Below the pieces are notes generated by a model. The model was not told the origin of the DNA. It worked only from the letters and a program-made list of their open reading frames with translations, and did no database searches. DNA of 63,832 bases, the filler included, from Reclinomonas americana ATCC 50394 (taxonomy: Eukaryota), in the NCBI GenBank assembly GCA_048213135.1. It is 6 parts of 3 records of this genome, joined end to end, with 100 filler letters (N's around TTAATTAATTAA, not from the genome) between each part and the next. Parts side by side here need not be neighbours in the genome. Positions count along the whole stretch, not along the records: positions 1 to 23,335 come from PS015571.1; positions 23,436 to 47,912 come from PS015572.1; positions 48,013 to 53,355 come from PS015572.1; positions 53,456 to 59,050 come from PS015572.1; positions 59,151 to 61,548 come from PS015574.1; positions 61,649 to 63,832 come from PS015574.1. One strand, given 5' to 3'. The position numbers were made by a program, and so were the translations under genes. Shown here piece after piece: positions 4,790-63,042 of this stretch (positions within the stretch are counted from its first letter, which is position 1; every line of letters starts with the position of its first letter).

Positions 4790-7700
4790 ATGGCTGACGG
4801 GTACAGCCGGTTGGACGATCATGTGAGAGGTTCCATGGAGATGATCCCCTTGGTTCCGCGTGATGCCTGGGGTGATGTCATCGCGTCAGTGCGCGATATC
4901 TGTTGCGTCTCTGCCGCTCTCTCTCTCTTTTCATGCGCGCGCGTGTGTGTGCTCATGCACTATGCGCATACAGTGGAGACACACATGCGTGATCACTCGC
5001 GACAGTCGGCCAACGACGTGCATCTGTGGCACGAAGAGATGCAGACTGTCAAGGTGCTACGAGAGGCCTGCAAAGAGCGCGCAAAGTACGACCGAGAGGA
5101 CCAGGGCGTGCTGTTGTTGGCCTACACCAAGTTCTTCAAGTGGTGGTCGCAGACGCGGTGCACGCGCGCTGCGTGGGATGCTGTCCGTTGCGCTCTCTTG
5201 CATGCACGCAAATGTGCTCGTCGTGTGTGCTTCTAATCACGCGCGGTGAAACACCAGAGTGTCGCTCGCCAGTGGCGTCGCAGCGGTACCCGGATCTCAG
5301 CAGCGTGATCAGTGTGTGTGCTGCGCGCGATCGGGAGCACGAACCACGCGATGTGTGGACGACGGTGCAAGCACTGGCGGATTCTCGCCCTCCTCCGCCC
5401 AAGCCATACGCTGCGCGCCGTCCGCACGTGTACTATGAGCCGGAGCCTGTGAACAGATACCAGCAGTCGGCGCAGCAGCAGTCCATGTATAGCCCGGTTA
5501 TGCCGCCAGCTTCCGCGCAGGCGTACGAGTACTCGGGTGGAGCTGGTGTGGCGCCTCCGATGGCATACTATTCACCGGCAGCAGCAGCAGGGGCAGGCGG
5601 TCTCTTTGATGCACCGGTCGACCGTCTGAGCCATGTGGGCCATCGGGTGCGTGTGGGAGAGAGAGAGAAAGGAGAGGAAAGACTTTGTCAGCGGCACTGA
5701 CTTGTCGATCGTCACCAGCCGGGAGTGGAGATGGGCGCTGCTTCTGGTGGTTTGTTTGACTCGCCGGTCGAGAGACTAGGCCGCCTGGACCTTCAGGTTT
5801 GCGTGAATGGTTGAAGGATTGACAGTCCGTGTGGCGCTCACTGACTGTCACTCCCAGGCGGGCCCTGGTGCGGTTCGCCCCCCCTCGGCTGCCTCTGTAG
5901 CTGGTGGGGTCTTTGATGCACCAGTCGACAGCCTAGGCCGCGCGGACCGTCAGGTGTGTGCCAGCGAGTGAAGAGTGACTGCATCGATCTGTTAGGTGCT
6001 GATCTGATGGTCTTCGTCCAGGCGGTTCGACCGCCGACAGCCGCCGCCGCCGCAGCTTGGTCCCCAGCACCCGTTGGCGCTGCTGCTTCTGGAGGCCTCT
6101 TTGGAGGTCCGGCAGAGCGACGCAGCATCTTGGACCAGGTGCGTGCGTGTGTTTTTCGCGGCGACATGTGAGTATGCTCACTCGACAAGGAGGCCCACGT
6201 AGCCGGCCGAAATCAATCCGTCTGCGGCAGCAGCAGCACCAGCTTCTGGCCACTTCAGCTCCGACGAGCGCAGGTCAGACGCTCGCGCTCGCAAACCAGC
6301 TCGTGAGAAGTCGCGCAGTGATGAACCGGTGCTCTTTGGTCCACCATACTTCCGCGTTCCGCATTCATCACTGCAGTCCGACGCCGGCTACGAAACGTGA
6401 GTTGCTGCCGTGCTCTCTGTTTACCAGTCTCTCGCATTCTGACTGAACATTTGTGCAGGCTCAAGACGCACCGGTCCATCGTCTTCCGCAAGGACTGCCG
6501 TGAGGAACACGACAACAACTTTATCTATCGTTGCGTGCTGTGGTCCACCCACTCCTCCAACTCCTCTGACGCTGGTGTGTGTTTTTGTCTCCTTGCAGTG
6601 CTCGAGTTAGAGGGTGGACGCGCCTCGCGTCGTGTGCGACTCAGTGCGGTGCGTACAACTCATGTGTGTGTCGTGCACAATCACGCACGGCCTGCACTGA
6701 CACTCTTTATGACAGCAATCGCGACAGCAGGGCATTGACCTGTTTCGCCAAAAGTGTGCCTCTAGTGGTCTGCCAGAGTACATTTGCGGCAAGTGCACTG
6801 CGGTGGCACAGGTGGCTCCGAACACCATGGAGGTGAGCCGCATTGTCGTCTGCGCGTTCATTGGGTATGTATTTCTCACCACACAGCGTCTGCAGGCCAC
6901 CCTGGACTTTACGGAGGAAGTGAGGCAAGTCACGCGCATGGGTGAGTCGACCTCGGTCGTCGGTATCCTTTGATTGCATCCTGACGCAATGTGCAGATCT
7001 GGACGCCATTGCGCAGGAGATTGAGGCGGCTGGCTGGCGCTCGGCAGAACGACCCGATGTCAGGCTGCCCGATGTCGAGATGAGCGTCCGCAACCAGTGG
7101 AACGCCGACATCTCTTGGGCCAACGGCACACCGAAGAACATCCGCGCCATTACCATGGTCGTGTGGAGTACCTCGACGCGCAAGCGGTACGGCGAGGTGG
7201 TGGAAGAGATGCGGCGTAACCGACAAGGAAGTGCGTCGCCACCGGCTGCACCTTTCGCTTTGTTGTGATCTCTCACGCAACGGCACGCAGAGCCACTGAT
7301 CCCCATGTTGGCGTTCCACGGCACCAGGGGCGATGTGATTCCAAAGATTCTCCAGGAAGGCTTCAATCCGGCGATGCGCAGGCGAATGGCGTATGGGCAG
7401 GGGTGCGTTACTCTCCACTGCTTTTCGTACTCCTGAATTCCTGTGTATATCTCACGTGTGTGTGTGTGTGCATCAGTGATTACTTTGCACGCAACGCCTC
7501 TGTCAGCATCGGATACGCCGACGCGGCGAACCGCATGATTGTGTTCGAGTGCTTGTTGGAGAGTGCGTGTCCGATGTCTTTCTGTGCACTTACCTACGCA
7601 GTGGGCTCACCGATGCGCTGCCAGGTGGTACCGTCACGTGGGTCGACGCGCAAAACTACTTTGTCGTCAACGAAACCGACAAGTACATGTGGCCGATTGC

Positions 7701-7792
7701 TGGTGAGTGCCGCTGTCGCTGCGATTCTGCTGCTTCGAGGCTGGCATACTGACGGCGCGTGCATGCATGCAGTGATTGATTTTGATCGTTAG
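4790..7792 (+). CDS. Multi-exon protein with a C-terminal PARP-like ADP-ribosyltransferase domain
   Basis: Spliced C-terminus LAFHGTRGDVIPKILQEGFNP..AYGQGDYFARNASVSIGYA..RMIVFE..NYFVVN..WPIAVIDFDR* matches the PARP HGT / YGxGxYFA signature. Continuity with the upstream exons is inferred from GT-AG phases. Confidence 0.72.
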
Positions 7793-8376
7793 GCGCCGTG
7801 CGCGGAAGCGCGCATCATGTGCATGGTGAATGAAGCTTTGTGGAGTGTAACAACTGTATGTTACACTCATTCAGCGACGTAAGCTGCTCTTTTATTACCA
7901 TTTTCCAACCACGGATATCGATGCTTGTGGATTCCCTGTGCTTATGCAAGTGCTGTCTGCGAGAAGATGAAAAGCGAGCACGTCCTCGGTGCAATTATGG
8001 ACCGGAAAGTTTAAGGTCTGCACACCGGCCAGGTTCAGCTGACCAAGGACCGAAGGAAATCGAGTACAATGTCACCGAAAACTGCGAACACGTGAAAGCA
8101 AGAAACTGAAAATGGTATCTGTCCGTGTTTTGCTCTCGACATTGGATGTTTTCAACGCGGACCGTCTTAGTTTACTAACTCTAGCCACCTGGACTCACGC
8201 CTAACATGCACCAATGAACCGACACTTCGCGCTGCAGCCTGGACCGAAATCCGCGCAGCGCAGCGCAGCGCGCGCGCGCTCTAGATCTGCCCGAAATTAA
8301 AAACTGCGCATGCAGCGCATGCTATCTGCAGTCGCAAACATCGAGGCGCAAACCAACGGCCAGAGGGTCCTTTTCG

Positions 8377-8655: not shown

Positions 8656-8774
8656 CACGATGATGCAGCCTCCCGACTCTCTCCTCGTTCGCGTTTACAC
8701 AAGGGTTCGCCACAGATCGCCAATCAACCGACCGTGGATATCTCGCCTAGCCAAGTAGCCAGCCAGATCCAGCC

Positions 8775-11700
8775 ATGGGCGCCTGTTGCGGGGGCGGTGG
8801 CAACAGCGCCAGTGCTCGTCGACGCAGCATGCTGGACGGTGGCACTGGACTCCCGGTGCGCACACCACTGCCCCATTTCTCTCTCCCCTCACTCCCCCCT
8901 CACACACATGTGTCAGCCCGCTGTTCTGCGACAACTGGCCGCCGATGTGGGTGCCGTGTACGAACGCCTCTTCGAGCAGCTGCCTGAGGACACCGGCAAG
9001 GGCGCCGACTTGTCAGTGTTGGTGAACAAGAAAGGCGAGAATATCGATGTGCAGTTGCTGCTGCCACGACTGGCGGCTGTTGCGTTCTCCCCTCCCCTCG
9101 CCCCTCTATCTCTCTCCCTCATCCTCATGTGTGTTGTGAGCACAGGGCGTTACTGTGTACGACATTGGCGAGGCACTCGAGCGCTTCCCGCTCTACACGG
9201 TGGAGTTTGTGCAGCCGGTCGGCACCAAGCAGTCGCCGAGTGTGCGCGGTCGTCGTGTGGCCGATCAGATCACCGCCCGCCTGGACGACAGTTGCGCCCG
9301 TGCGCGCCAGTCCACACCTGCGCCATGTGCCGTCTCACCCCCCTTCTCCAGTGCTCGCCGATCTGCAGGATGGACGCGGCAACAGCACGGCAGTGGCCGA
9401 TGCCATGGCGCACAGTCCCGACGGGCGAGTCGAGCTGCGCTTGTTTGTTTCCGAGCACCCGGTACTCTCGGCGCTGTGTCAGCGCTACTTTCCACGCCGC
9501 TCGCCTGTGGAGGTGGTGGCGGAGGCCCTCGAAAAGGCCGTTGCGTCTGTGCTTGGTGTTGCTGGGCGGACTTGTCTCACAACCCTCCTTGCGCGCAGGA
9601 TAAACGCGGATCGCGGGTCTGTCTGTGTGCGGATCAACCGCAGTACATGAAGGCGCGCCCGCTGTTGCAGCACCTGGAGCTCATGCTGGGAGTGTGGTTC
9701 AGTGATCGCGGTCTGACGCACTTTCCGGTGCTGCGTGAGCTGTGCGAAAAGTACAACTTTTCCGACAAGTCGGTGCCGCTCGCCGACTTTCTCCAGCTCT
9801 CACGCGTGCGTCACTTGCTGCGACGTGAACCCGAGGCACGGCACGAGGACCACGTGCGCGCGGCGGCCACAGGTACAGATCGTGACTCGCTCTGCTCTCT
9901 GTCTACCATCCGCTGTCACTTCAGTCCTTCGCCACTCGTACTGTGCTCTCCGTCGTCTCACGTGCGTGGTGCTGAATTGCAGCCTCGCCACTGGTCACCA
10001 TCAGCGTGCGACAGCGTGGACGTGGCGCGGTGTTCATTGGGCGCACCAACACGCAGGATTTCGTGCGACGTGCACTCAATCGCATGTTCTCGCCCGAGTG
10101 GATCCACGTGAATCCGCAACTGCTCGAATGCAGCAGTGGGAAGGAGATCCCGGTGGAGGAGTTGCCGCACATGTGGCCCTTCAAGTCGATGACGAAGACT
10201 CCCGTCACGGCCTCCACCATCCGCTCCGTGATCAAGGGCGACTTGTCGGCGGTCTGTCGCGACTGTCGTGCGACGGTGCGCCAAACCTCATCTTCCTCTG
10301 TTTTGCGTAGGTGTGTGTCCGACTGACGCCAAACGGAAAGGCGATTGTGCTGCGCGACGGATCCATGTCACCACTCATGTCGCCCGTCATGAGTCCGGCG
10401 TTCAGTGGAGTTGTGAGTGGACGCGGTGGGATGACATTAGATGCTCGTGCGCCGACTGAACGACCTTCTCTTCGTGCTGCAGATCATGAGTCCACAGGCA
10501 GGCAGCCTTGCGAGTGCCGCCGGCGGTGCAGGTGAGGGCATTGACGATCCTGGCAAGTGGTCGCACGACGAACTGCTTCGTCGACTGCGCTCGCAAGTCC
10601 AGTCGTGGTTCGACGAGTCGTTCCTCCTCTCCAATGCGGTGCGTCGTTGGGGGCGGGGGAAAGATGAATGCATGCATAAGGCTTGGCTTTCATCTGACTG
10701 CTGCGCACAGCAACTGCTGTCGATTCTGCGAGAAAGCGACGGCAGCATCAAGCTGCGTGATCTGCTCAAGTTGTATCCGCTGAAAGAGTGGCTCAGTAAC
10801 TATCCAGGTGCGTGTGCTTATCATAATGCAATGTGCTGGAGTGGCGCTGACAAGTTGGAACAGACCCACTCGACACGCTGTCCACGGCACTACAACGCTC
10901 GCGTGTGCTGCAGGTTTTCAAGGACTCGCGCAAGTCGGCCATGCGCGTCTGTCGACGAAAGGCGCTGCCGGAACTGCGAAAAGTTGCGCTGCTTGACACA
11001 CTCACCACTCGCGCGCTGTTCTCAACTCTCGTGCAGTTTATCGATGAGCTGGATGTGCCAAAGGATGCTGGTGGGGTTGTGTCGCATCTGTTGCTGCTAG
11101 TGCATGTGCGTAACCGTGGCCTCTTGCATCATGCAGTGTACTTCTCGGTCATGTCGTGGAACATTTTGGCCGACATGCGCGCCATCAAGGTCTGTTGTGC
11201 TTCACCGTGTGCGCGCACATGTGAGGCTTGCTGACGCTGTGCAGGAGTTGTATCCACACGTGCCGAACCCGGAACAAGTGCTCGACTGGAACGTGCGGCG
11301 TGCTGGCATGTGCGTTCGTCTGTCTTTGCTCTCGTTGCTGTCATTGCCACTGCTACTGACAGTATTTCTCATTTGTTCCACTCGACGAACAGCATCACCG
11401 AGGTAGGAGCATGCGTCTCGTTGTCTCGTTGAGCTCCTTGTGCTGAGCATGTCGTGTCGCCAGATCGCCATCCGCCGCCCCGACATTCTGTGCCTGCAGG
11501 AGGTGCAAGGCTACGAGGATCACGACGTGGCCGAAGACAATCACGTTGCGCAGCTGACGGAGGAGCTCGCACGCGGCAGCGTCGACGGTGGCGTGCTTGC
11601 CGGTGGTGTGTATGTGCGCAGACGTGGACGCAATCGAAAGGTGCTCCTGCCGGGTCGGCCCAACCTCGGCTGCTCACTCCTGTGGAATCCACAAGTTGCG

Positions 11701-12814
11701 TCGTCTTTACAGTGCGTGTTTTCGTTCAGTGGCTGACGACTCCTGTCGCGTGAGGCAGGTCTTCAAACTCGTTGATGTGCGCGAGTTTGCTCTCGCCGAC
11801 GGTGTGGCAGGGCTGACAGACGACCCGCGAGTGGCGCGCGACATTTCCACCGGGCACACCAATGTGGTGGTGACTGCCGTGCTGCGACACATTCAGTCAG
11901 CGCAGGCGGTGATGGTGTGCTGCGCGCAACTGACCAGCGGACAGCGCGGCCGGTATCCTGCCATTCAGTTGCGACAAGTTGAGTTGCTCTGCACCTCCGT
12001 CCTCTTGACTGTGAGTCGGCCGCGGCAACTGAAAGCCACTCCCTGCAGCTGGTGGCTTTGGTTCGTCACATTGTAGAGTTCCGCGAGGCGTGTCAAATGA
12101 GCGACAAGCCGTTGATACTGGCCGGCGATTTCAATCTGCTGCCAGACTCGCCCGGCTATCGGTACCTGGTGGGTGGCCATCTGTCAAGCAGCGATCCCGT
12201 GTTTCGGTGAGTGGCCGAACATGACTCGTCTCGTAGCGGTGTGTTGCTGACGTGGTGGTTGTGTCGTTCAGTGAGGCCGCAGAACTGCCGGGCTCCACTT
12301 CACCGCTTGCCATCAGCAGCCGCCACGACTTGCATTTCGAGAGCGCATACAAGCACATGCTGGGCGGGCACGAACTTGCTGTGACGCATCGCGCTGAATC
12401 GTTTGCCGGCTGCATCGAGTTGCGGCAGCGTGCCGGCATTGCCAGAAGAGCTCCTGTTTCTCACACTCGCGCATGCGCAGCTACATTCTGTTTGCACGCA
12501 ATTGCGGTCTGCGAGTGGCTGGCGTTCTCGACACGTTCCGTGCTGTGGAGAAAGACGAGGTTGTCGTGTGGCCGAGTCGCCGTGTGGCCTCGGATCATCT
12601 GCCGCTGATGGCCAAGTTCATCTTCGAGGGCGTCTCGCGCAGTGCGCGTCGCAGCAGCAGTGGCGCCATTGACACTGCCGCAGGCGGCAGGCGTCCGTCG
12701 GCCACGGCGATAACGACAACCACAACCACGACGACGACGACGACGACGACGGCAACGCCAGCGGTAACCGCTACGGCAGCGGCGTCAACGGCAACAGCAG
12801 TGACGCGCCGCTAA
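8775..12814 (+). CDS. Multi-exon protein: tandem La-motif-like repeats + C-terminal CCR4/Angel/PDE12-type EEP nuclease (paralog 2)
   Basis: Starts MGACCGG, with intron 8856-8916 in phase 0. EEP motifs: FSVMSWNILAD, PDILCLQEVQ, LAGDFNLLP, IDYILF, ASDHLPLMAKF. La-like repeats include LRSQVQSWFDESFLLSN..RESDGSIKLRDLLKLYPLKEWL..DPLDTLSTALQRSRVLQV..RVCRR. Confidence 0.8.
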
Positions 12815-12827
12815 GCAGCAGTTGGCC

Positions 12828-15025: not shown

Positions 15026-16777
15026 ATGGCGTCGCGACAAAAGGGTTTGTTCTTTGCTGCTCCAACTCTCGCACTTTCTCGCTCTCTCTGCACATGTGTT
15101 TCGCCTGCGCTCGAGTGTTTTTCCTTGTTTTCTTTGCTGACACTTTTTTTTTGTTGCACTCTTTGCTATTTCTTTGCTCGGTTCTTGCTATTCTTGCCTC
15201 TTGTTTGGCACTGACCCCTGCTGATAATAACTTTTCAAACTTACCTTTTGTGTTTGCATGAGCGCAGTGCTGCTGAAGATCATCATTCTGGGGTGAGTGG
15301 CTTTGTGTGTGAGAGTGTGTGTGTGCAGAAGTGTAGAACATCTCGCTTGAGCCCCGACTCACTTTTCGTGCGCGCGTGATGTTTTTTTTCGTCTTCTCAC
15401 TTTCCGGTGTGTGTGTGTATGTGTGCTTGCCCATGTGCGCAGTGACTCGGGGTGAGTGCGGGCAAGTTGACGGCGGAGTGTGTGTGTGTGTACATCGCGT
15501 CATGTCGGTTCTCACAACAACGCATTGTGTGTGTGTGTTTGTTTGTGCGCGCTCCTCCTCCTCGTCTACGTTGGTGGCTTCCGCGTGTAGTGTCGGCAAG
15601 ACCTCGTTGATGAACCAGTTGCGTTCGAGTGTGTGTGTGGAGTTGCACATGTCGAGAACATCGCGCACGCAAACACACATACACACGCGCGTGTGTGTGT
15701 TTGTCACTGTGTTGTTGTGCGCAACTCTCTCTGTTTGGTGTCTGCGTGCGCNNNNNNNNNNNNNNNNNNNNGTCGTCTCTTGTGGGTGTCGCGTGTCAAC
15801 AATGTATATGTGTGTGAGCTCTGACTGATTTTTCCGCTTCTCTCTCTCTCGCTCACTCTCTCCTCCCTCCCTCCTCTCTCTCTCTCTCTCGTGCAGGTAT
15901 GTGAACCGCAAGTTCTCCAACCAGTACAAGGTGTGTGTATGTTCACACACATCTCGTCATTGTTGTCAGCCGTGACTGAAGAATACTCTGTCGTCCGCAG
16001 GCAACAATCGGTGCCGACTTCCTCACGAAGGAGGGTGGGTAGCAGCAGAATAGCACGCGGGCGAGAATCACACCTGGAAGCTGATTGGATGATGATGTGT
16101 TTGTTGTGTACAGTGACACTCGACGATCGCATTGTGACGATGCAGGTCTGTTGGGAGATGATTGTGTTTTTCGATGGTGGCACGGCGGCTGATTGATGCT
16201 GGTGGCTTGAGTAGATCTGGGATACTGCAGGACAGGAGCGCTTCCAGTCGCTGGGCGTGGCTTTCTACCGCGGCGCCGACTCGTGCGTATTGGTGTTTGA
16301 CGTGAACGTGGCCAAGACGTTTGAGAACTTGGAGAGCTGGCGCGACGAGTTCCTCATCCAGGTGAGAGCTCTCTCCTCTGTTGCGCACCATTGGTTTGAT
16401 GCTCACTCTGCTTTGGCGCCTCACAGGCCGGCCCGTCGGACCCGGAGAACTTCCCCTTCGTGGTCATCGGCAACAAGGTCGACAAGGACGAGCGCATGGT
16501 CACCCAGAAGCGCGCGCTGTCGTGGTGCCAGTCCAAGGGCGACATCCCATTCTTTGAGTGCTCAGCCAAGGACGCTCTGAACGTGGACAAGGCGTTCGAG
16601 TGCGTCGCACGCAACGCCCTCAAGCACGAGGATCGTTCAGAAGTGTTGCGTACTCCCTTATGCAGAGGCAGGATGTGAGGGGGTTTTTTGGTCTCACTCT
16701 TGCGGTGCAGCTACGTGCCTGACCCCGTGGACTTTGAGCATGGCGACGAGGCCACCAAGAAGAAGGGTTGCTGCTAA
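15026..16777 (+). CDS. RAB7: Rab7 small GTPase (10 exons)
   Basis: Spliced [92 protein letters not shown]. Confidence 0.96.
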
Positions 16778-20400: not shown

Positions 20401-21836
20401 TCATGCGGTTCAATAGCGTCTCACACACTCTGCCGTGGAGAGATGGGCGTGTGAGTTCTCCAGCTACTCGTCCCACGAATGGGGGGAGAAGCGACACCCC
20501 GCAACTTCTCCAGGTGCGGCGAGAGAGCCTCGATGCACAGCGATGACTCGGCAATCGCCACCCAGAATTCGGTGGCATCCACCGCCACCTCCTCGTCGTC
20601 GTGCAGCGTGTTTGCCATAATGAATTCGATGATTGTGTTGATGAATGGCATGATGTACTGTGCGTGCTCGACCAAGGCCATGAAGCAGCTGCATACCTGT
20701 GCAATAGAATGAGCGCGTGCAGAACCACCTACGCAGAGGGCAGAACAACGAACCCTGCGCTTCACACGGTGCTCGTCGTCGCTGCACAGCAGGAAGAGTC
20801 CTTGCAAGAACGAGTCCATGTTGGCCACCAGCGCAGCCGGCATCACGGGCACAAAGTGCGTGATGCACCCGAGCGCCATTGACCGCACTTCAGAGTCACC
20901 GTGCGCCAACAGGTCCACCAGCTTCGGGATGATGGAGTTGATTGGACGACCATAGTCCTGCACGCACGCACACCATCACGTCAATGACGACACAAGATGA
21001 AAAGAGCATGCAGTGGGGGACGCACATCAGAGATCAGCGCCCGTCCATGATCCTCGCAGATCTGGTACAGCGCAGTGGTGGCTCCATGCACCGCGCACGG
21101 ATCGCCCGACTCCACCGCACTCAGCAGGAACTCGATGAGATGCGGGAACGAGCGGAGAGTGCCTGCAGCAGCGCTTGCATCAGCCACCACGACGAATGCG
21201 ACTGGTAGAACACACCCACACACCCACACAGACCTTTGCCGACAAGCATGGTGAGGCACAGCGCAATGGTTCTCCGCACCAGCTTCTCTCCATCGTTGAT
21301 ATTCTCACACAGCAGCGTGTACACATGCTCAATCACACTCGGGTCCAAGTTCTCATAGTGCTGGCGAATGTTGTTCTTCAGCTGAATGCCCGCTTGCTGC
21401 AGCAGTGCCAATCGAGTGTGTGTTTGTGTCAGACAGAAAGGAGGAGGGGGTTTCTGTTGTTGGGAGGCAATGATGAGATTACCTGTCGCACTCGTCGATC
21501 GGCCTCCTTCAGTGCGCAGAAGATGTAGCACAGATAGTTGTTGTAGTCGGGCACACAGGCATTGAAGGACTCCAGTTGCTGTGTGAGTGAGAGCGAGAAT
21601 GAGGAGCGTGAATGAGGACAACAGTGAATTCGTGGTTGACAATGCACTCAGTTGCGCAATGTGCATGTGTGAGTGTGAGTGTGTGAGAGAGTGTGCGCGC
21701 GTGAGTGTGTGTGTATGAGAGAGAGAGTGCGACCGTTGGACATGTTGGTGACAACACAAAGTCGAACATCTCTCGCACGCCTCACACACACTCTCTGTTC
21801 TCTTCTCTCTCACTCACTCTTGTGGTTCCACACACG

Positions 21837-21879
<43 letters not shown>

Positions 21880-22008
21880 ACACGCACACACATGTGAATG
21901 ACTGACCTCGCGCACAGTGTTTTGCACATCAGTGTCGCCAATAATAGTCTGCTCCAGCATGCCAAGGAGGTCGCGCAGACCTTGCTCGGACGGTAGCCAG
22001 GCAGTCAT
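17416..22008 (-). CDS. TNPO1: Transportin-1 / karyopherin beta-2 (interrupted by N gap 18444-19010)
   Basis: MTAWLPSEQGL, PDYNNYLCYIF, AGIQLKNN, ALYQICED, EFWVAIAE, SEWTARKCAAYALDIL, ALGAIADGC, VQKAACSALAALEEDA, NLMVLYDAIGVLAE, VCNNAIWALGEI. Confidence 0.93.
21841..21876 (+). repeat. (CT)n microsatellite, representative of the many intronic CT/GA and GT/CA tracts
   Basis: Directly visible dinucleotide run. Similar tracts flank most assembly gaps. Confidence 0.9.
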
Positions 22009-22247
22009 TTGAACACACTACGCAAACTCTGGTGACCCGCCTCGGAAGACAACTTGGTCGCAGCGGGACGGACGGACATTGTGCTTCATTTGCAAGACAC
22101 GTCGCTAGCAGGCAGCAGCAGCAGCAGCAGAAGGAGAAGGAGATGTACACATACAGACAAGAGAAGGGATGCACACACACATACAGATAATACGATACGA
22201 CGCTGAGCAGAGGATGCGAAGACAGAGCGATACAAGAAAAAACATGA

Positions 22248-28052: not shown

Positions 28053-28128
28053 ACTCACTCATTCCGTCGCCCGTGCGAGCGTATAACAGTTTGTTTTGCA
28101 GAGTGTATTTGACTCAAGAATTGTTTGT

Positions 28129-48277: not shown

Positions 48278-51200
48278 ATCGGAACGGTGCTGAGTCACAC
48301 GGCATACGGCACCGAGTTCAACGACAAGAGTCCGTGCAAGAGCATGAACCATTTCATTCGCGAAAACTCGGATCGCCTGCAGTCGTTCTTTGAGCAAGTG
48401 GCGCAGGTGGCAGACCTCGAGGAGGTGTACGAGCACTGCAAAGTCGACGATTTGGTGCGTGGCCTTGTTGTCCTCTGTGCGTTGCAACTTGCTACTCACG
48501 GTCGTGCGTAGGCCGAGTATCCGATTCTGCCCGGCTGCATGTCCAACCAGGATCTGTACACGGCGCACCTCATTTTGTGGTCCCACATGGCTGCCCAGGT
48601 GACGTATTGTGTGCCGGCTGGGCATCGCGTGCATGTACTGTTGTGCTGACGAAGAGTACCTTGTGTGTTGCTTGGCAGCCGGAGGACATGGTGTGCGAGC
48701 TGGAGGAGATTCTGCGCGCCATTGGCCAGCCGGACCCTGAGCGGCCACCCACCTCCACCAAGTATTTGCTTGTACACGAAGCACGACCACCATACAAGCC
48801 ACCAATTACTGGTGAGTTGTAGGAAAAGGAAAAAGGGGAGCTACTGATTGTCGCTCACTTATTGTGCAACCAGAGGATCAATTCTGGGGCGCGGTGGACG
48901 GCACACGAGTGGTCAAGACACGACTGCGGCAGCTGGTGTGTTCAATCGACCTGTCCGATTATGTGCACTCGGCGTGTACCCTGATGCGATTCTTGGAACG
49001 CGCCGTCCACGTTGCGTCTCCTTCGTCGCTTGCCGCTGATCGCTTCACATGCTGATAATCGTGCGTGAGTAGCAAGAGCGCTCCAGCGGGTCCTTGATGG
49101 TGGCGGCGTCCATCCGAGAGATTATGGTGGAGCTGGAGAGACTCGGACCCGAGTACTCGGAGAACGACTACGAGGCACTGCTCGCTGAAATCGGCAAGGT
49201 GCGGTGCTGCTGCTGCTGATGGTAGTGGGGTAGCTGAGGAGCTGACTGCGTGGTGCAGGACATGGATGCACGCGCTCACATGCTGCTAGACTTGCGCAAG
49301 ACAAAGGAAAATATTCTGCTGTCGACCGAACTGCTGTCCATGCAGATCAAGGGTTCGTCTCCTTTCCTTTTGTTTGTTGTTGCCCAACCACTCATCCCCC
49401 GTCTGCGTGCAGAACTGTCGACGGAGCGTGAGCGCCTCATTCAATTCCTCGAGGAGCAGCGCATGACGCCGTTCTATGAGAGCATTCAAGGCTTGATCGG
49501 GCAGTTGCGCAGCGTTCGAGCCGCCCCAACTCACCGCGCATGTGTTGTAAGCGTGTACGATCCCCCCTCGCGCAGTTTCCTGGAGGAGCTGCCTGGTTGT
49601 GCATACATTGAGGAGATGAACGACAAGCTGCGCGATTTCGGTGAGCAGCTGCGACTAGAGGTGAAGCGCTTTTATGGCGGCACCCCAGGAAAGGGCATCA
49701 CGGCGCTGGAGATCGACCATGCTGTGCGCTCGGGTCAGAACATGGTTCTGGCTCGCATCCACAACAAGTGCGTGTGTGTGTGTGAGGGAGATAAGTTGGC
49801 GAGGAGAGGCTCACTGCTGGTGATTGGTTACAGTGGCCTCGCCAGTCCCGACGACGGCAAGGACATGAAGATGATGCAAAAGTTGATGGAGCTGTCCTTT
49901 GTCACGCCGCAGTTGCTGGACATTCCGAAGGCCTTCTTGTGCGAGAAGACGTGGGAGCTGGCACGCGATGGTGTGTGTGTTGCAACGTGTTGGAGGCTGC
50001 GTGTGAGAGAGTGATATGTGTCGCTGAATTGTTTTTGTGCAGAGCTCGAAAAGATGAGCAAGTTTACTGGCCCGCAAGACAAGCTTCGCTGTATTGTACA
50101 TTTTACCAGCAGTCTGTTTGGTGAGTGCAGCGGGGGAGGAGGCGCTGTTTACTGTTTGCTGACACTCATTTTCTGGTGCATGCAGAGTTGATGAAGCTGT
50201 CGGGCAGCGTGCACAAGATCATGCCGTCGGCCGACGACTTTATTCCCATTCTCATCTACAATATTATCAAGTGCCGACCGGCGACCCTCTGCTCCGATCT
50301 CTCGTGCGTAGTCAACCTCCTGGTGTCGGCCATTGCCTTGTACTGTTTCGTTTAACTCGTGTGTGTGTGTGAATCAGTGTATCACAGCGCTTCATGCAGC
50401 TGGCCGAGGGTGCCTTGGAGGATGTGGGCGGGGCGGCCGAAGGTGACAGCCTCTTTGCGCTGGCGGATTACTGGTTCCCGCACTTTGAGGCGGCATGCTT
50501 GTACATTGAGAGCACTGATGCGGAGAGCATTCGTGCGGACTCGCGCATCAAACCGACTCCGTCGTCGTCGTCGCAGCCGAGCACGGCCGAGTCGTCGCCG
50601 GCCCAAACGTTGCGCGCACACAACTGCAATGTCGTTTGCTGTTTTTGTGCTTGTCGCCTCTCACGTGTGTCAGTCATGAGGACAGTCCACCGCGCAGTCC
50701 GCGTTCGCGAGCCACCTCTCCTCTCAGTCAGGGATTCACCGTCGCCAGTCGCCACCTTTCCATGATGCCGGTTGATGTTGCGTCTGTTCTCGCTATTCTC
50801 GCGTGCGCCGTCGCGCTCATGGTTGTTTTCTCTTCCTTTTCTTCTTTCCCTTTTCCTGTCTTTGTGCTTCCTCTCTCGGCGCAGCATCACATTCTCCATC
50901 ACTATCACGAGGTGCGCTGTGCTGTTTGTGTCTTCCTCTCTTCTCTTTCACCTTGTCTCGGAAAGTGGTTGCTGACTGTCAACGTGCACGTTACAGGCAC
51001 CAGCCGAGCCCGTGGTGCTCCGGCGGCAGCGATCACGCACCGTGTTCGGACAGAGCTCGTCCACTGGCGGTGGTCCGCCGCTGCTCGGCCAGCACGCGCC
51101 ACTGCACATGTCCAGCTCGGTGCCCATGCCCTCCGGTCACCACTCGATGCTGGAGACCATGCACGCACACCACAGTCCGTCGGGTCGTCGCGGCTCCGTC

Positions 51201-51620
51201 TCCTCGGTCTCCTCTGACTCGCACCCCGTGCCCACCATGCTCATTGAGCAGCACAAGGCCGCATTGGCAGTTGCGTCTCGCCCCCCTTTTTTTGTATCGT
51301 TGTTGTTGTTGTTGTTGATCTAGGTCGTTCAGCAACGAGCAAACTCGCGATCCAACTCCCCGCTTCCCACCGGCCTGCACTCGTCTGCCTCGTCCTCACC
51401 ACCGGCATCGCCCGCACTCCCGGCCTCGGCGCACTCGCCTGGTCCCGCGCCGCACCTGCATCACAGTGCCTTCTCTCCGGCCTCGTCGGCCTCCTTCACG
51501 GCCATTTCTTTCGCCGAAGTAACGCCGGAGACAATTACGGTGGCCGATCTGCCGCGATTGCTGGAGGAGTACAGGCACATGGCGCGTGTGCTGATGGGTA
51601 CTTCGGATATGTCGCTGTAA
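48278..51620 (+). CDS. GAPVD1/RME-6-like Rab5 GEF (RasGAP-like tail + VPS9 domain), 5' part missing
   Basis: MNHFIRENSDRLQSFFEQV (RasGAP C-terminal-like). VPS9 motifs WELARDELEKMSKFTGPQDKLRCI, PSADDFIPILIYNIIKCRP and YWFPHFEAACLYIE. Confidence 0.78.
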
Positions 51621-53753: not shown

Positions 53754-55451
53754 ATGCTTGGCGGCATTCTCAAGACGCTCGGCGTTTTCCGCCCACCCGG
53801 CGTGCCACTCTACAAGAGTACGTACCTCTCTGTGTGTGTGTATGCGTAAACTCCACGGGGCCACGGTTTCTTTTCGTGGTTTCTCTCTCTCTCCCTCGTC
53901 ACTCGCACACTCATGACGACATCAAGCGGGAAAAAAGACACGATGCGAAACTCTCTCCCCTCTCTTTCCACTCCTCCACATCTCCCTCGCTCTCCTCTCC
54001 CACACACGCGTGTGTGTGCGTGTGTGGGCGCGCCCGCGTCAACATTTCCCCCAACATCGGGTCATGTTGATCACACCAACACGCACGCACGCACTCGCGC
54101 CTCCTGCCCCCGCCCTCCGCGCATCTTTTTCCACTCTCTGCGCCTCACAATAGCTCCCCCCTCTCTCCACCCACTGCCACGCACCGCGCGTCACGCCCGA
54201 CAATGCGACTCACGGTTATAACTGCCTCTTCCCCCGCGCAGTCATGTTGTACTACTTCATGTTCTTCCTGACGATGCTCGGCCTGCACAAGCTGCTGCCG
54301 GTGATCACGACGCTGAAGCACCGCGTGACCAACTGGATGGCCAAGGACATGCCGGCGACGCAGGCCAAGGGCCCGACGCTGGTGGAGCTGCCGACGATCC
54401 AGGCCTCGCAGCTGGACGTCGAGTCGTTCCAGGCCAAGTACCTTCGCACCAACACCCCCGTCGTCATCCGTGGCCTCGGCCGCGAGCAGGGCTGGACGGC
54501 GGTCGGCAAGTGGAACTTTGAGTTCTTCCGCCGCAACTACCCCGACCTGGAGCTGGCCGTCTTCAAGGACCACTCGAAGAAGGACCTCACCTTTATCAAG
54601 TGCAAGGAGTTCATCGACAAGGTCAAGGCCGGCGAGCGCGTCTACGGCCGCGGCCTCGACGAGTTCTTTGTGCACGATCCGGCCCTTCTGCAGGAGGTCA
54701 ACTACCCCCTGGTGCAGAAGCTGCGCGGCGCCGATCACAACATTGGCAAGATGGGCTCGGGCCAGTACGAGGGCCTCCTCTTCATGAGCGCCCAGAACAC
54801 CTACACCCAGATCCACTCGGATGTCGGCACCAACTTCAACATGCAGATCGAGGGCACCAAGGAGTGGCACATTTACCCGCCGGACCAGCTGCCGTACTTT
54901 TACGCCGAGCCCTGCAGCACCAACCTGTTCTACCGCAGCGCCATTCGTTGCGTGCACTGGCAAAGTGGGGTGTGTGTGTGTGTGTGTTTTGTCAGCGACT
55001 GACAAGCACTTTGGATGATAACAGAGGACCCGACCAACCCCGACATCAAGACGTTCCCGATGTTCAAGTACGCCTCGGGCTACAAGGTTTTGTGCATGCC
55101 AAAGAGAGAGAGAGAGAGATTGTGAGCCTACTCATGCTCACTTGCTCTTTGTGTTTGACACAGGTGGAGCTGCAGCCGGGTGATGCGCTGTTCATCCCGC
55201 CGATGTGGTGGCACGGCGTGAAGAACCGCACCGACGCCATTGGTTGCGCGCTGGACGGTTTCGTGAACCTGGGACTGACGCTGAAGAGCAACCCGTTCCT
55301 CTCACTGGGCACGCTGCTGAACCCGCTCAACGTGCGCGGCGCCTTCAACCTCATCACCAAGTTCGACTTTATGTTGCGTACCAAAGCATTTGCGATGCAT
55401 GATTTTTTGGACATCACACTCATTGCATCGCACGCGCACAGTGGCAAGTAA
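53754..55451 (+). CDS. JmjC / cupin-8 Fe(II)-2-oxoglutarate oxygenase
   Basis: KYLRTNTPVVIRG, AVGKWNFEFF, TYTQIHSD, QIEGTKEWHIYPP, LQPGDALFIPPMWWHGVKN (HxD...H triad). Confidence 0.88.
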
Positions 55452-55631: not shown

Positions 55632-56858
55632 ATGAAGGCGGTGTTGTTTGTGGTGCTTGCGCTGGTGGTGGTGGCGGCTGTGCATGCTGCGGACCCGCCG
55701 CGCCCCAAGATGTTGCGTCTCTCTTCCTGCATCTATTTCTCCGCACACAAATGTTCTCACACACTCTCTCTCTCTTGTGTGTGTGTGCGTGTGCAGTCCG
55801 GAGACCTTCTCCTCCCTCATCCACGTCGACGTGGCTCGCCCCGGCCGCCAGGTCGTGCGCGCGACGGTGAGCAAGCACGCGTTTGTTATTCTCCGCGTCA
55901 TGGCGGTCACATTTCGCACCGACCCCCACCTGTCCCCCCTTTCTTTCCTCCCTCCTCACTCTCTCTGCTGCTGCTGCTGCTGCTGCTCTGCTTTCTCACC
56001 AGTGTGCATGTGCAATAGGGTGTGTGGAACCAGGACCAGCCCAAGGGCCTCGGCCGCCAATTGTGGCAGTTCCAGGTGCAGCCCAACGTGGAGCGCGACG
56101 TGGAGATCATTGAGCGCTTTGACCTGCACCGCGTCTACGTTGCGTCACTCCACGCACACACACAACGCGCGCGCGTGGTATCGCGACTCACATTATTGTT
56201 GTTGTATTGTTCCGCATGTGCAGTCGTGGTTCCCTCGGTGAGTACTCTTGTCGGCACACACGCTCGCTTGATTGTTGTTGTTGGTGCTTACCGCCTGTGT
56301 GTGTGCGTGCGCGCGCAGCGAGCAAGACTGCAACGTGAAGGACATTGTCGGCCTCATGCCGCGCACTTTTGGCTTTGTCGACTACGCCGGCTACATTGTT
56401 GCGTTTCCTGTCGCCCTGCCTCCTCCTCCTCGTTGCGTGTTGTTGTAACACGTGTGTGTGTGTGCATACAGGGCCAGCGCAAGTTCCCCGACGGCACGGT
56501 GTGCGACCTGTGGGTGGAGGAGGAGGCCGGCCGCAAGCTGACTCTGTGCGTCGACGACTCGAACCCGAACGTCCCGGTCGCCCTCACTGTCCAGCGCCAC
56601 GACTCCGACTTTGACGTCATCACCTTCCGCACCTTCCACGCCGAGGCGCCGCCGAGCAACGACTTTGACGTGCCGCAGGGCGTTGCGTTTTTCATTGCAG
56701 TTTTTCTCTCTCTTTTCTGAGAGTTTCTCTGACACGCCCTTTCCTTTGCACAACAGTGCCAGACGAGCAACTCGTTCGACTCTGCTCCTCACCACAACCA
56801 CCACCACCGCCGCAGCCGCAACGGTTTCCTCAAGACCACCATCACCCGCCAGCAGTAA
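55632..56858 (+). CDS. Secreted/lysosomal ependymin-related (EPDR-like) protein
   Basis: Signal peptide MKAVLFVVLALVVVAAVHA, then PPRPKIPETFS, IIERFDLHRVY, CDLW, PVAL, FRTF..PPSNDFDVPQGC. Confidence 0.6.
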
Positions 56859-59020: not shown

Positions 59021-59199
59021 GCTGCTGCTGCTTGGGGAGAGACGGTCGTCNNNNNNNNNNNNNNNNNNNNNNNNNNNNNNNNNNNNNNNNNNNNTTAATT
59101 AATTAANNNNNNNNNNNNNNNNNNNNNNNNNNNNNNNNNNNNNNNNNNNNTTTGTTCTCTCCATATATTCCCCTTGTGCTCACTCTCTCGCCCGTGCAG

Positions 59200-59508
59200 C
59201 TTCGGCTACTTGACCAAGACGCGCATCAAGCTGGTGGCCATTATGCGCGACGCCATGTACTCGGAGGCACACATTCAGGAGGTTCTTGAGTGACAATTTC
59301 TCTTGCTTATGCGCAGGTGGATCACTGACGTTTTGCGCAGTTCTTTGAGCGGTTGCACGTATGTGTCATGGACGCCGTCTCCAATCCGTTCTACGTGGAG
59401 GGCGAACGCATCACATCACGGCGATTCCGGGAGCACTTGCTGGTGCTGATTAGCAAGATGACGGACACGTTGCGGCACACGAATAGCGCCAGTGGCGGCG
59501 GAACATGA
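59200..59508 (+). CDS. TRAPPC2L: Sedlin-family TRAPP subunit (TRAPPC2L-like), 3' part
   Basis: FGYLTKTRIKLV..FFERLHVCVMDAVSNPFYVEGERITSRRF. Confidence 0.8.
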
Positions 59509-60051
59509 CATACGCAGGAGAGAGAAAAATTGTGGCACAGTGAACACGCAAATGAGAGCAGCCCACGAGGAGTCAAGCTGCATTCCGAAAGCGTCGTCAC
59601 CCGATCGAAGTTGAGCTGCATGCACAGCTGCAACTGATCGGAATCCGTCCTTCTCCTGTCGCATTCACCGTCACCACCTACGGCATTATTCGCGCTAAAT
59701 GAGCTTTGCCGCCGCCGCCGCCACCATATGCTCGACATCGGGAGAATTCTGCAAGCCGGGTGCACCATCATGTCCAATTGCATGTTCGGGTACACACAGT
59801 ATACCTCTTTGCAGCGAGACAGACGAAAGAACCCGCTTGCAGGCTTGCACAGACCCATTTGCGAAGTAGCAGTAGGAGGTCTGAGAGAAGGCGGGAGCGC
59901 CACCGACAAACCGCAACTTTGGGTTGTCGGACAAAAGTTGAGTTGAAGCGGCGAGCAACGAGCACGCGTCGTAGGCACCGTTGTGTGAGAAGAGTGTGAG
60001 TGAGTGAGTGGCGTGTGTGTACGCGAGTGAGCGAGAGTGGCAGGCGCAAGG

Positions 60052-61486
60052 ATGACGGATCAAGCGGCGCCGATGGTGCCACAAGACGATGGCTTTGACA
60101 TCCAACGGTTTATTTTGCTGCACTCACACAACACTCACCTCTCACAATCTCACATTCCCACCTCGCGCGCGCGTGTTTGTGTCTTTGTTGCGTAGTCAAT
60201 TCGTGCTGGCACTGCACTCGTTTGAGCAACAGGTGTGTGTGTGTGTCTGTGTGTAACCGCACTTGAACAAAAAATACGTTAGTGTGCTCACACATTGTTT
60301 GTGTTGCGCTCTCTCCTCTACAGCAAGCCATGCAGTTGTCGATGAATGCCGGCGAGGTCATTGAGGTGGTGGCCACTGACGAGTCGGGCTGGTGGTGCGT
60401 TGCTTTTTTGCTTTTTGTTTGCGTGTAACGAAATGGACATCAGCACGCGCGCACTCTCTCTCTCTCTCTCTTCCTCTCTTCCTCTGTCTCTTCTCTCCTT
60501 GTGTTGTGTCTGTCTGTGTGTGGCGAGAGGGGTACATCATGATGCTGACAGTTGTGCGTCAAAAGGTATGGACAAAACCTGCGTGGCGAGGAGGGCTACT
60601 TCCCCTCCAACTTTGTGGCGCCCATCTCGCTCAATGAGGAGGGCCCCAGTGGCATGGTTGCGTCTGGGAGAGGAGCGGAGTCAACGAGACACACAGCGCA
60701 AAAGATGACTGACGTGCGTGTGCGTGTCTCTGTCTGTGTGTGTAGAATGGGTCCACGGCTGGCATGGATGAGTTGGCACACGCACTGGCTCGTGTGAAGC
60801 ACGTGAACCGTGTGCTGGTCTACAACATGGAGAAGCGTGGCATCTCTCTTATGAGCTTGGAGACCGATCCGCCAAGTGTACGGGGAGACTCTGATCCAGG
60901 TGAGGACAACAACTCTATTCTCCCTCCTCTCTCTCCTCTCTCTCTCTCTCTGCGTGTGTGTGTATGCGTGGTTGTCGTTGGCCACCACAAGTCATTGCTG
61001 CTCACACGCTTTCCTTTCGACAGTCGCGCTGGATGACGATGTGATGCGGCATTGCCAGCAGATCCTCGACTCGCTCAAGCCGCATGTTGGCTTTGTGGCG
61101 GCGGATACGGAGGGCATGGCGCGCAAGGACGCGGAGATTCGCCGTCTCCAGGAGCAGTTGGCACGAGCGTTGCGTCCATAACCGCCTTGACGAGTGTGAA
61201 TTGCGCTGATCCTCACTCACCCTCGTGCGCAGTGAGTCACGACCAACCACGGACCCGCGCCAGACGGCCGAGCTGGAGGAGATGAAGCGAGAAAAGGCCG
61301 ACATGGAGGAGATGTTGCAGGAGTCGGAGGCGGAGAAGGAGAAGCTCAAGAAGCAGCTGGCGCAGTCACGCGATCGCTTCAAGTCACTGAAGGGCGGCAT
61401 TGGACAGTTGGCGGCCGTCAACGACAAGATCAAGCGCGTGAAGAAGGACATGGATGAGCTGAAGGCCGCCGTTCAGAGAACAAATG
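60052..61486 (+). CDS. SH3 domain + coiled-coil protein (3' end lost in gap)
   Basis: Spliced FVLALHSFEQQQAMQLSMNAGEVIEVVATDESGWWYGQNLRGEEGYFPSNFVAP, followed by EK-rich coiled-coil exons. Confidence 0.8.
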
Positions 61487-61873
61487 GTTTGTTGTTGCTG
61501 CTGCTTCTCCTTTGCTGTGGTCGCCAACAACCCGTGTGCTGACGGTGANNNNNNNNNNNNNNNNNNNNNNNNNNNNNNNNNNNNNNNNNNNNTTAATTAA
61601 TTAANNNNNNNNNNNNNNNNNNNNNNNNNNNNNNNNNNNNNNNNNNNNTCTCTCGATGCCAGTGGTCTCCGCGGGCAGGTTCTCGTGCTGGTCGATGCCA
61701 TGTGATTTTGTAAATTTAGATGCAATCCACAACCACAGTAAGAGGAGGAATGAGTACACCATGCTGATACAATCATTCAAAAACATCGAGAAAAAACAAT
61801 CAGCACGGTGCTTGTTCTCTCTACACGCGAACGTGAGAGGCTTGTTGCGTAATAAAGAAGGCGGCTCGGTCGG

Positions 61874-63042
61874 TTAGCCGGCGGCGAGTCGCACAAGCGC
61901 CTCGTACACCATCAGCGCAATGCCAAACAGCGGCCCGATGATAAGCACACGAGGCGTGGCGCCGCGGAACAGACCCTTCATGCCCTCATCCTGGTACAGC
62001 TTGGCAGCCGTCGGCATAATGTGCAGCTTGACAGGCGAGTCCTGGATCTTGGTCTTGATGCAGTCGGCCGGTGTCGACAGGAAGGCGGCCACCATACCTA
62101 TGTCACGATAAGGAAAGGAGAAGGAAGCGTGTGAAATGGAGGGTGACGCACCGGCAGCCGTGCTGGCCGTCAGCGTCTTCAGCGGGCCGAGCGAGCCCGT
62201 CTCCTGGTACCACGTCTGCTTGCCTTTTGTGCATGAAGAGAGTGCGTGTGAGAGAGAGAGAGAGAGGGCGACACGCACACCGTGAGCCGCGCGCGCTCAC
62301 CCTTGGCATACATCGCAAAGTACATGATCGAGAATGGCACATCACGCAGCAGCGTGGCGCTCGTGCCACGATAAACGCCGGCCAGTCCGCCCACCGTCTT
62401 GTAGATGTCCGCCAGTCCCTTACCGCCGGACTGCCCACCGATCTTGAAGAGCTCCATCGGCGTGGTGACAATCACCTGGCACATGCCGGCGAAACCACCA
62501 GCAAACATCTCCTGCGCAATCTTGCCGGGCGTGGTGTCGTTGCAGCCGAGTCTGCGCCTTGTCACATCGTTGACGGTGATCTTCAGCGCCTTCTCCGGGC
62601 TGGCGCGCGAGTCAGTGCACGGGGAAGAGCAAGAGAATGGGGGGAAAGAGAGACGCAACATGATACCAATGAGGTTGGCGGGCAGACCGCGATACAATCG
62701 CAGGTAGCCCTCGCGCGGCACAATGTCGCGCAGAGCGGCTCCAATGGTGCCATACACGCCCTTCTGGATCAGAGTCTTGCACGTGTCCAGTGGGAACATG
62801 CAGCTGGCGCCTGGAACAAACAAACAACAACAATGATGATTACAATGAAACGGAATCCGTGAATCACATGCATGTGCGTGTGAGTAAGAGAGAGTGTATT
62901 GTGTGAGAGTGTATATGTGTGTGTACCACGCACCGACCATGCCAGAGAAGCCAGAGAAGAGCAGCTTGGTGCCGAAACTCAGCTTGGCGAGGCGCGCCTG
63001 GCGCTCTTCCTCGGCCTTGGCCGCAGCAATGCCTGGGCTCAT
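61874..63042 (-). CDS. Mitochondrial carrier (glutamate or aspartate-glutamate carrier-like, SLC25A22 type)
   Basis: Three PxDxxK-type motifs (FPLDTCKT, TPMELFKI, TPADCIKT), plus PEKALKITVND, ATLLRDVPFS and PLFGIALMVYE. Confidence 0.88.

Follow-up and report, generated by a model that had tools for sequence, protein, structure and literature searches.

An abundant GTTGCG class of 5′ splice sites in Reclinomonas americana, possibly read in a shifted register

We analysed a window of DNA from Reclinomonas americana ATCC 50394 (the whole stretch of 63,832 nucleotides (nt), ~64 kb, from which all counts below are taken) and found that roughly 16-21% of its introns begin with GTTGCG. GTTGCG(T) almost certainly marks a real and abundant class of 5′ splice sites, carried by ordinary short GT-AG introns. 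Its members have GT..AG junctions and do not require the exon-final G that accompanies most other donors in the window, and in length, acceptor, branch site, base composition and phase they are otherwise ordinary. The motif reads like the main donor one base out of step. The explanation we favour, with about even confidence, is that the U1 small nuclear RNA (snRNA) is the reader and meets these sites with its register shifted by +1.

GTTGCG as an abundant donor class

Genes were predicted with a purpose-written Viterbi model in Python that scores codons by log-odds, admits GT..AG introns of 35-1200 nt and handles the two strands separately; all predicted introns begin with GT and end with AG by construction. 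In run 1 the donor and acceptor scores were flat, the donor information being GT alone. In run 2 (donor-agnostic) the acceptor matrix and intron length were learnt with donors still flat, and in run 3 (trained) the donor tetramer at +3 to +6 was learnt, the exon side never being used. GTTGCG was the commonest donor hexamer in run 1, at 17/160 (GTGCGT 8, GTGAGT 7), and in the donor-agnostic run, at 31/195. The trained model placed 41 of its 196 donors at GTTGCG (GTGCGT 20, GTGAGT 15, GTTCGT 7, GTCTGT 6, GTTGAG 6), where independent position frequencies predict 2.92. An initial annotation of the window had counted about 30 such introns by eye and named the comparison with independent position frequencies as a check on the class; both model counts and that comparison bear it out. 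Its description of ordinary donors as carrying G at +5 also holds, for 105 of the 155 non-GTTGCG donors in the trained set. Training may bias a model towards the motif it already calls most often, which makes 31/195 the conservative figure.

GTTGCG occurs 113 times in the window, 59 times on the + strand and 54 times on the − strand, against 36.7 copies expected from base composition and 62.5 under an order-2 Markov model. Among the 4096 hexamers it stands at rank 41; GTAAGT has only 6 copies. The 72 copies that are not predicted donors come near the Markov expectation for the entire count; they lie in sense exons (19), sense introns (17), antisense exons (19), antisense introns (6) and intergenic sequence (11). 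The copies at 15618, 56682 and 62659 are probably donors that the model missed.

The 18 sites named in the initial annotation all read as it reported, 17 of them as GTTGCG and one, at 11978, as GTTGAG. With 4902 added, the trained model recovered 14 of 19 and missed 15618, 56682, 14860, 47673 and 62659. Two of the missed sites found support elsewhere: 15618, whose intron contains an N run, was confirmed by the complementary DNA (cDNA)-derived protein P0001, and 56682 was supported by homologue comparison. At 62659 the gene finder read through, although the site reads GTTGCG and splicing it gives a plausible carrier-like reading. The site at 22378 reads GTTGCG as claimed, but its use as a donor is doubtful, given an 800-nt intron and a rival donor at 22406. 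The donor-agnostic model used 22406, which equally yields a Rab C-terminus ending GGCC.

Ten GTTGCG junctions have support from outside the gene finder, in the form of a protein derived from expressed sequence tags (ESTs), homologue profiles, Pfam and PDB numbering, and an in-window paralogue (Table 1). P0001 is an EST-derived open reading frame of the same organism from EukProt, found by a homologue search with the Rab7 exon, and is 100% identical to the Rab7 of the window over a 72-residue exon. Laid on the window with GT..AG gaps, it requires the introns 15618-15896 and 16645-16710, both of which begin GTTGCG; the 15618 junction can slide by one base, and the GT-AG placement was chosen. For the transportin-like gene, every in-frame GT/GC..AG alternative up to 48 nt away was spliced in turn, and the resulting peptides were scored with a hidden Markov model (HMM) of 13 homologues. 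All four GTTGCG junctions scored highest among their alternatives, the one at 20505 by merely 0.5 bit. The same test shifted three non-GTTGCG junctions (18030 to 18009, 21227 to 21233, and 20093 to 20099, the last by 0.6 bit), and at 20280, likewise not GTTGCG, it favoured another acceptor by 0.4 bit.

Residue numbering in solved structures runs on without a gap across two further junctions. In the RRP42 chain 6h25_E, the exon upstream of 29732 ends at residue 54 (GSAR) and the third residue of the downstream exon is 57, so its first is 55; the second exon alone is a weak match (E = 0.08). Across 33922, the numbering of IP3R3 (6uqk_A) reaches 2337 in the upstream exon and resumes at 2339 in the downstream one, with 2338 supplied by the split codon, and in RyR1 (5gky_A) the numbering passes from 4936 to 4938. 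In the EPDR-like gene, a search of representative sequences with one exon gave seven weak homologues, later used for the C-terminus test, and returned neither itself nor an EST match. Against an HMM of these seven C-termini, the intron 56682..56756 was the best of 13 candidates (59.5 bits versus 55.6 for read-through), and splicing there restores the cysteine of a C-terminal F-x-V/I-P-x-x-C motif that is present in 6/7 homologues. Splicing at 12419 gives GCID/YILFA (here and below, a slash within a peptide or exon sequence marks the junction), which matches the uninterrupted NCLDYIFYS of the CCR4-like paralogue in the window. A Pfam scan of 79 exons beside GTTGCG or GTTGAG introns gave matches on both sides at two junctions only, 19775 and 22915.

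Apart from the donor, the two groups of introns look alike. Median length is 69 nt for GTTGCG introns and 66 nt for the others. CAG acceptors end 35/39 and 130/145 of them (TAG ends the other 4/39 of the GTTGCG set), and a CTSAY branch motif is found in 33/39 and 100/145, its branch A lying a median of 18 and 19 nt before the 3′ end. The two groups have the same base composition, their phases do not differ (p = 0.23), and the GTTGCG motif occurs in 14 of the 20 gene models with at least three introns. When 184 introns were compared all against all by blastn after removal of the heptamer, shared sequence was limited to low-complexity matches of 13-21 nt, which are not class-specific (pairs A-A 16, A-B 51, B-B 47). 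We rejected an introner or transposon-derived origin, there being no near-identical intron bodies in that comparison. We also rejected U12-type introns, which have a /RTATCCTT donor consensus and a TCCTTAAC-like branch site: the donor here is GTTGCGT, and the branch and acceptor are like those of other introns.

Exon end, cut and register

Only 2 of the 41 GTTGCG donors, at 41853 and 60657, follow a G; the remainder follow A (12), C (14) or T (13). Among comparison donors, a −1G is found in 81/105 of those with +5G and in 99/155 of all non-GTTGCG donors (Fisher p = 1.9e-12 in the trained set), and the donor-agnostic set gives the same picture (2/31 versus 92/164, p = 9e-8). Of other donors beginning GTT, 20/24 retain −1G; for GTTGAG donors the count is 1/6. 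The initial annotation had described the exon end as never G, and the loss of the G requirement stands, with the two exceptions above. Its stronger form, in which G would be excluded, does not: 2/41 is not clearly below the exonic background, where G precedes non-donor GTT in 45/401 cases (11%), GTTG in 18/166 and GTTGC in 7/58. The apparent "never G" rule arises because GGTT is depleted in exons, so that a −1G at background level means that the requirement was lost and not that G is barred. We therefore dropped exclusion of G as a property of the class. We likewise rejected the idea that its −1 composition copies the −2 position of ordinary donors, where G makes up 26% as opposed to 5%; the class resembles the background. 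Across the predicted exons of the window, the base before a non-donor GTT is G in 11% of cases, and before GTG in 31%.

A cut one base later, giving UU...AGN introns after an exon-final G, was ruled out by the encoded residues at 12419, 26981 and 56682. With GT-AG boundaries, 12419 encodes the Asp of the CCR4-like (I/L)DYI motif, 26981 encodes Leu (DMIL/NQDPP) and 56682 gives TGC, the conserved Cys; one base later these become Glu, Trp and GGC. Since all three discriminating cases favour GT-AG, the cut lies in front of the G of GTTGCG. In 21/41 introns, including both in Rab7, the two boundary readings encode the same protein, which is why P0001 alone cannot place the cut.

How such a site might be read is suggested by its resemblance to the main donor string, G/GUGCGU, of which GUUGCGU would be a copy one base out of step. 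The ordinary exon-final G would correspond to the first intron base of the class; U then takes the place of G, and UGCGU follows. Under this proposal, whatever reads the 5′ splice site (most probably U1, through its 5′ end) would bind G-N-U-G-C-G-U in a single register, so that, relative to cleavage, GTTGCG introns would be read in a +1-shifted register. The cut would be fixed later by the GU itself, leaving the exon end free. No exon G would be needed because the intron +1G takes the place of the ordinary −1G, and single-register reading would put T at +7 rather than +6. T is indeed found at +7 in 31/41 GTTGCG donors, mirroring T at +6 in 69/105 donors with +5G. Thus, the initial annotation's idea of a displaced consensus is upheld by the +7 T and the lost −1G, but not by the fit to canonical U1 or by the C-biased +5 position.

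These misfits, and some limits of the data, weigh against a shifted U1 register. The canonical U1 5′ end is AUACUUACCUG. We calculated duplex energies with ViennaRNA for its 11 nt as naked RNA, without pseudouridine or proteins. In their best register, GTTGCG sites average −1.37 kcal/mol with this canonical end, which may not be the organism's own, compared with −5.18 for the 155 other donors and −2.83 kcal/mol for 3,571 non-donor GT decoys in the same genes. They pair more weakly than the decoys (Mann-Whitney p = 8.8e-7), 90% of them lie above −3 kcal/mol, and in the shifted register the pairs at +2 and +5 are broken. The variable position is no displaced copy of the ordinary one: GTTGNG has C 41, A 6 and T 1, whereas GTGNG has C 27, A 18, T 8 and G 2 (Fisher p = 1.4e-4). 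Canonical U1 would pair A, not C, at +5, yet the C:A ratio is 41:6 as opposed to 27:18 in ordinary donors. Nor is A enriched at −1, where the shifted register would let it pair (12/41 against a background of ~25%). Moreover, every count comes from this one window, 31 of the 41 junctions rest on the gene finder, and the cDNA-derived evidence from P0001 concerns two introns at the protein level, homology continuity adding eight more. The reader likely has a G opposite the +5 C, and the U1 5′ end of this organism would then not be fully canonical. Such a G would make UGCGU a block of five pairs and would thereby explain both the weak calculated pairing and the C bias. An Rfam search of the window gave zero matches at gathering thresholds; with the cut-off relaxed to E up to 1 there were two matches, both at chance level, and no snRNA among them.

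The main rival of the shifted register is a variant snRNA, possible though clearly short of probable. Here U1, or a second U1-like RNA, would have the 5′ end ACGCAAC, complementary to GUUGCGU in the unshifted register. The heptamer would be the perfect-match consensus, and GUGNGU donors would be imperfect sites for which −1G compensates. Such a reader would need no contribution from the exon and would account for the strong C preference at +5, for a canonical fit worse than that of decoys, and for the sharp peak over seven bases (41 GTTGCG, 31 of them followed by T at +7, beside 6 GTTGAG and 1 other GTTGNG). We scored five hypothetical U1 5′ ends, hand-picked after the motif was seen. The class mean moves from −1.37 to −5.17 with U5 changed to G, or to −10.70 with GC plus an extra A, the full complement. 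However, the area under the curve (AUC) for donors against decoys rises only slightly, from 0.66 to 0.71-0.72, and with variants picked post hoc; the exercise makes the idea coherent and nothing more. Few eukaryotic RNA sequences are as conserved as the 5′ end of U1, which tells against a variant, as does the use of GTGCGT donors with a canonical U1 in other GC-rich lineages. In the window itself, −1G accompanies 9/15 GTGAGT donors versus 17/20 GTGCGT donors, a pattern fitting a U1 that pairs A at +4. In its broadest form, the lineage would have changed its 5′ splice-site code, with a U1 or U1-like RNA pairing GUUGCGU through a G opposite the +5 C and possibly an extra base. We hold this to be a tentative proposal and somewhat doubtful. 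If it is true, GUUGCGU is the best-matched donor, and G/GUGNGU donors are imperfect and dependent on the exon G.

Recognition largely independent of U1 pairing, with U1C, a Luc7-type or other RNA-binding protein, or U6 reading UUGCGU beside the GU of these very small, intron-defined introns, is unlikely. It would suit the poor fit to canonical U1, and precedents exist: the available portion of PMC11842720 describes LUC7-dependent exon-side and intron-side donor classes in animals and plants, and that of 10.64898/2026.05.17.725761 a U1-less spliceosome in a red alga. However, a seven-base invariant motif with G/C positions resembles base pairing more than protein recognition. A bulged-U register on canonical U1 is more improbable still. 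The +1G and +2U would pair, the U at +3 would bulge, and GCGU would pair as +3 to +6, the sequence being an ordinary GUGCGU with one inserted U. One-nucleotide bulges at +2/+3 are a validated but rare register in human cells, with 68 sequences predicted (Tan 2016; PMC4856993, available portion). The −1 base would still face U1 C9, so −1G should persist or grow, but it is seen in only 2/41 donors, and duplexfold, which allows bulges, gives no stable duplex without −1G (+0.5 to −1.4 kcal/mol). We rate this register low because the −1G preference it predicts is absent. That GTTGCG is not a splice-site class, its junctions being misplaced or the motif being the repeat or introner end of recent insertions, is scarcely credible: most junctions do rest on one ab initio model, training can amplify whichever motif a model already calls most often and 72/113 copies are not donors, but donor-agnostic runs already rank GTTGCG first, ten junctions have outside support, intron matches are low-complexity and equal with other introns, and the class is spread over 14/20 multi-intron gene models.

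Further introns and genes of the window

With 53.6% G+C and 4,446 N in 16 masked runs, the window consists of gene-dense eukaryotic DNA that has numerous very short introns. Genes identified are Rab7, transportin, a Rab32-like GTPase, a duplicated MAP2K-like kinase, RRP42, a very large IP3R/RyR-like channel, a VPS9 protein, centrin, a cupin/JmjC protein, an EPDR-like protein, a mitochondrial carrier and two CCR4-like nucleases. Intron density is extreme: 196 introns are predicted for ~33 kb of predicted coding sequence, and their median length is 66-69 nt. Acceptors follow a TGCAG consensus with the CTSAY motif ~18 nt upstream, and (TG)n and (CT)n runs are frequent within introns. The GTTGCG introns, and two with the minor sister motif GTTGAG, are collected in Table 1. 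The motif pair at 44911 and 44923 (−), 12 nt apart, may be a tandem donor.

Table 1. GTTGCG and GTTGAG introns of the window and the evidence for each ("both models": predicted by the donor-agnostic and by the trained gene finder)
Feature	Position	Strand	Evidence or remark
Rab7 GTTGCG intron	15618..15896	+	exact mapping of EST-derived P0001, SLMNQ/YVNRKF; contains 20-N run
Rab7 GTTGCG intron, phase 2	16645..16710	+	P0001 exact mapping, 66-nt gap; both models
Transportin-like GTTGCG intron	17523..17588	−	best of 22 alternatives, 46.8 vs 40.6 bits
Transportin-like GTTGCG intron	19705..19775	−	best of 18 alternatives; Pfam HEAT_EZ 7-40 then 43-55 across junction
Transportin-like GTTGCG intron	19882..19953	−	best of 37 alternatives, 58.6 vs 52.1 bits
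Transportin-like GTTGCG intron	20430..20505	−	best of 25 alternatives, small margin, 61.8 vs 61.3 bits
RRP42-like GTTGCG intron, phase 0	29732..29797	+	continuous PDB 6h25_E numbering
IP3R/RyR-like GTTGCG intron, pore region, phase 2	33849..33922	−	continuous PDB numbering
EPDR-like GTTGCG intron, last	56682..56756	+	homologue HMM and conserved Cys; not called by gene finder
CCR4-like EEP nuclease GTTGCG intron, phase 2	12419..12480	+	in-window paralogue
MAP2K-like kinase GTTGCG intron	26981..27051	+	both models; same motif at 23487 (−) in inverted duplicate
Cupin/JmjC-like GTTGCG intron	54947..55024	+	both models; upstream exon = Cupin_8 positions 3-180
EPDR-like GTTGCG intron 1	55712..55796	+	both models; sequence read directly
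EPDR-like GTTGCG intron	56139..56223	+	trained model only
EPDR-like GTTGCG intron	56398..56471	+	both models
GTTGCG intron	2080..2148	+	both models
GTTGCG intron	4902..4973	+	trained model only
GTTGCG intron	6530..6598	+	both models
GTTGCG intron	9079..9145	+	both models
GTTGCG intron	9291..9351	+	both models
GTTGCG intron	9540..9598	+	both models
GTTGCG intron	10983..11036	+	trained model only
GTTGCG intron	11695..11758	+	trained model only
GTTGCG intron	31983..32041	−	both models
IP3R/RyR-like GTTGCG intron	36201..36274	−	both models
IP3R/RyR-like GTTGCG intron	36735..36797	−	both models
IP3R/RyR-like GTTGCG intron	37079..37151	−	both models
IP3R/RyR-like GTTGCG intron	41330..41401	−	both models
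GTTGCG intron, G at −1 (one of two)	41778..41853	−	both models
GTTGCG intron	43103..43169	−	trained model only
GTTGCG intron	44281..44344	−	both models
GTTGCG intron	44668..44732	−	both models
GTTGCG intron, second GTTGCG 12 nt downstream	44843..44923	−	both models
GTTGCG intron	44976..45034	−	both models
GTTGCG intron	46751..46824	−	both models
GTTGCG intron	47148..47205	−	both models
GTTGCG intron	49011..49072	+	trained model only
GTTGCG intron	49504..49575	+	both models
GTTGCG intron	51270..51332	+	both models
GTTGCG intron, G at −1 (one of two)	60657..60745	+	both models
GTTGCG intron	61169..61232	+	trained model only
GTTGCG donor, acceptor doubtful	59469..60195	+	both models; 727 nt, far from 66-69 nt median
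GTTGCG at 22378, donor use doubtful	21579..22378	−	trained model only; 800-nt intron joining two genes
Mitochondrial-carrier GTTGCG intron, probable	62600..62659	−	sole support: splicing gives ANLIGI/IPEKALKITVND
GTTGAG intron, minor sister motif	11978..12048	+	gene finder prediction
Rab32-like GTTGAG intron	22853..22915	−	Pfam Ras 32-65 then 67-150 across junction

Several observations concern individual genes. P0001 reads KATIG/QERF and is without the stretch of protein encoded from 16011 to 16230 (+), where the switch regions lie; the skipped segment comprises part of one exon and the following exon. The transcript joins an exonic GT at 16011 (tcg/GTGCCG) to the acceptor at 16230 and is an alternative or aberrant isoform. 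The 5′ two-thirds of the MAP2K-like kinase is duplicated in inverted orientation, 23508-24653 (−) and 25829-27000 (+), around the N run 24869-25605. The predicted proteins of the two copies are near-identical and their intron contexts match, for example 23487 with 26981 and 24366 with 26128. The IP3R/RyR-like gene, 33207-47294 (−), is one very large gene that seemingly extends across the masked runs 38141-39117 and 40037-40999, with Ins145_P3_rec, RIH and Ion_trans matches and a C-terminal CxxC...H region. The gene finder split it and called a spurious + strand gene at 39176-40011. The cupin/JmjC exon 54244-54946 (+) encodes 234 residues with a Pfam Cupin_8 match (E = 9e-15); a word-indexed search of 5.8 billion proteins, covering "near" lengths only, found no homologue for it at E <= 0.001. 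A palindrome, GCAACGTTGC, at 14855-14866 carries GTTGCG on both strands, at 14860 (−) and 14861 (+). Five N stretches at the positions of the joining filler (23336-23435, 47913-48012, 53356-53455, 59051-59150 and 61549-61648) consist of 44 N, 12 readable bases and 44 N.

Relation to known splice-site classes

The U1 5′ end and a GURAGU-type donor are treated as near-universal, and non-canonical registers are known only as rare mammalian exceptions. Among the best-ranked literature matches, we found no published description of GTTGCG as a donor class. The class is a natural system for asking what fixes cleavage when guide RNA and cut disagree in register, and it may reveal a lineage with altered U1 or U6 reading. 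In such a genome, gene finders with a single donor matrix would misplace one fifth of junctions.

The closest relatives are the mammalian shifted-register 5′ splice sites of GUUAAGU type, reportedly described by Roca and Krainer in 2009. In both systems the organism's own consensus follows GU at an offset of one base, the cut remains at GU, and the +1G can replace the exon −1G. The mammalian sites are rare, however, whereas the GTTGCG class makes up about one fifth of the introns in the window. Bulged-nucleotide U1 registers are said to have been described by Roca in 2012. The bulge +2/+3 register shares with the class one extra U between GU and the remaining consensus, but it keeps the exon-side pairs (−1G to U1 C9), while −1G in the class is at background. 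In human cells, a shifted U1 register with cleavage kept at GU is treated as established in the available portion of PMC4856993, which cites earlier work. Human shifted sites pair well, a test oligonucleotide reaching −6.5 kcal/mol (same source, available portion), as opposed to a mean of −1.4 for GUUGCGU on canonical U1. They have been studied in cells, whereas the GTTGCG class is known here from sequence analysis alone.

U12-type introns offer a precedent for a second, highly constrained donor motif beside the main one, but GTTGCG introns share their branch and acceptor with the other introns. Right- and left-handed 5′ splice sites are classes tied to LUC7 proteins (PMC11842720, available portion). 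Here too there are two donor populations, exon-side (−1G) and intron-side (−1H). A right-handed (LUC7L2-type) site is −1H with +5G; the GTTGCG class is −1H in 39/41 cases but has C at +5 and its G at +6. In the window, moreover, the −1H population is mostly one fixed heptamer, and ordinary donors carry both −1G and +5G (81/105). The GTTGCG class thus differs from the mammalian registers and from the LUC7 classes in being a single heptamer, the commonest donor, with a fit to canonical U1 below chance.

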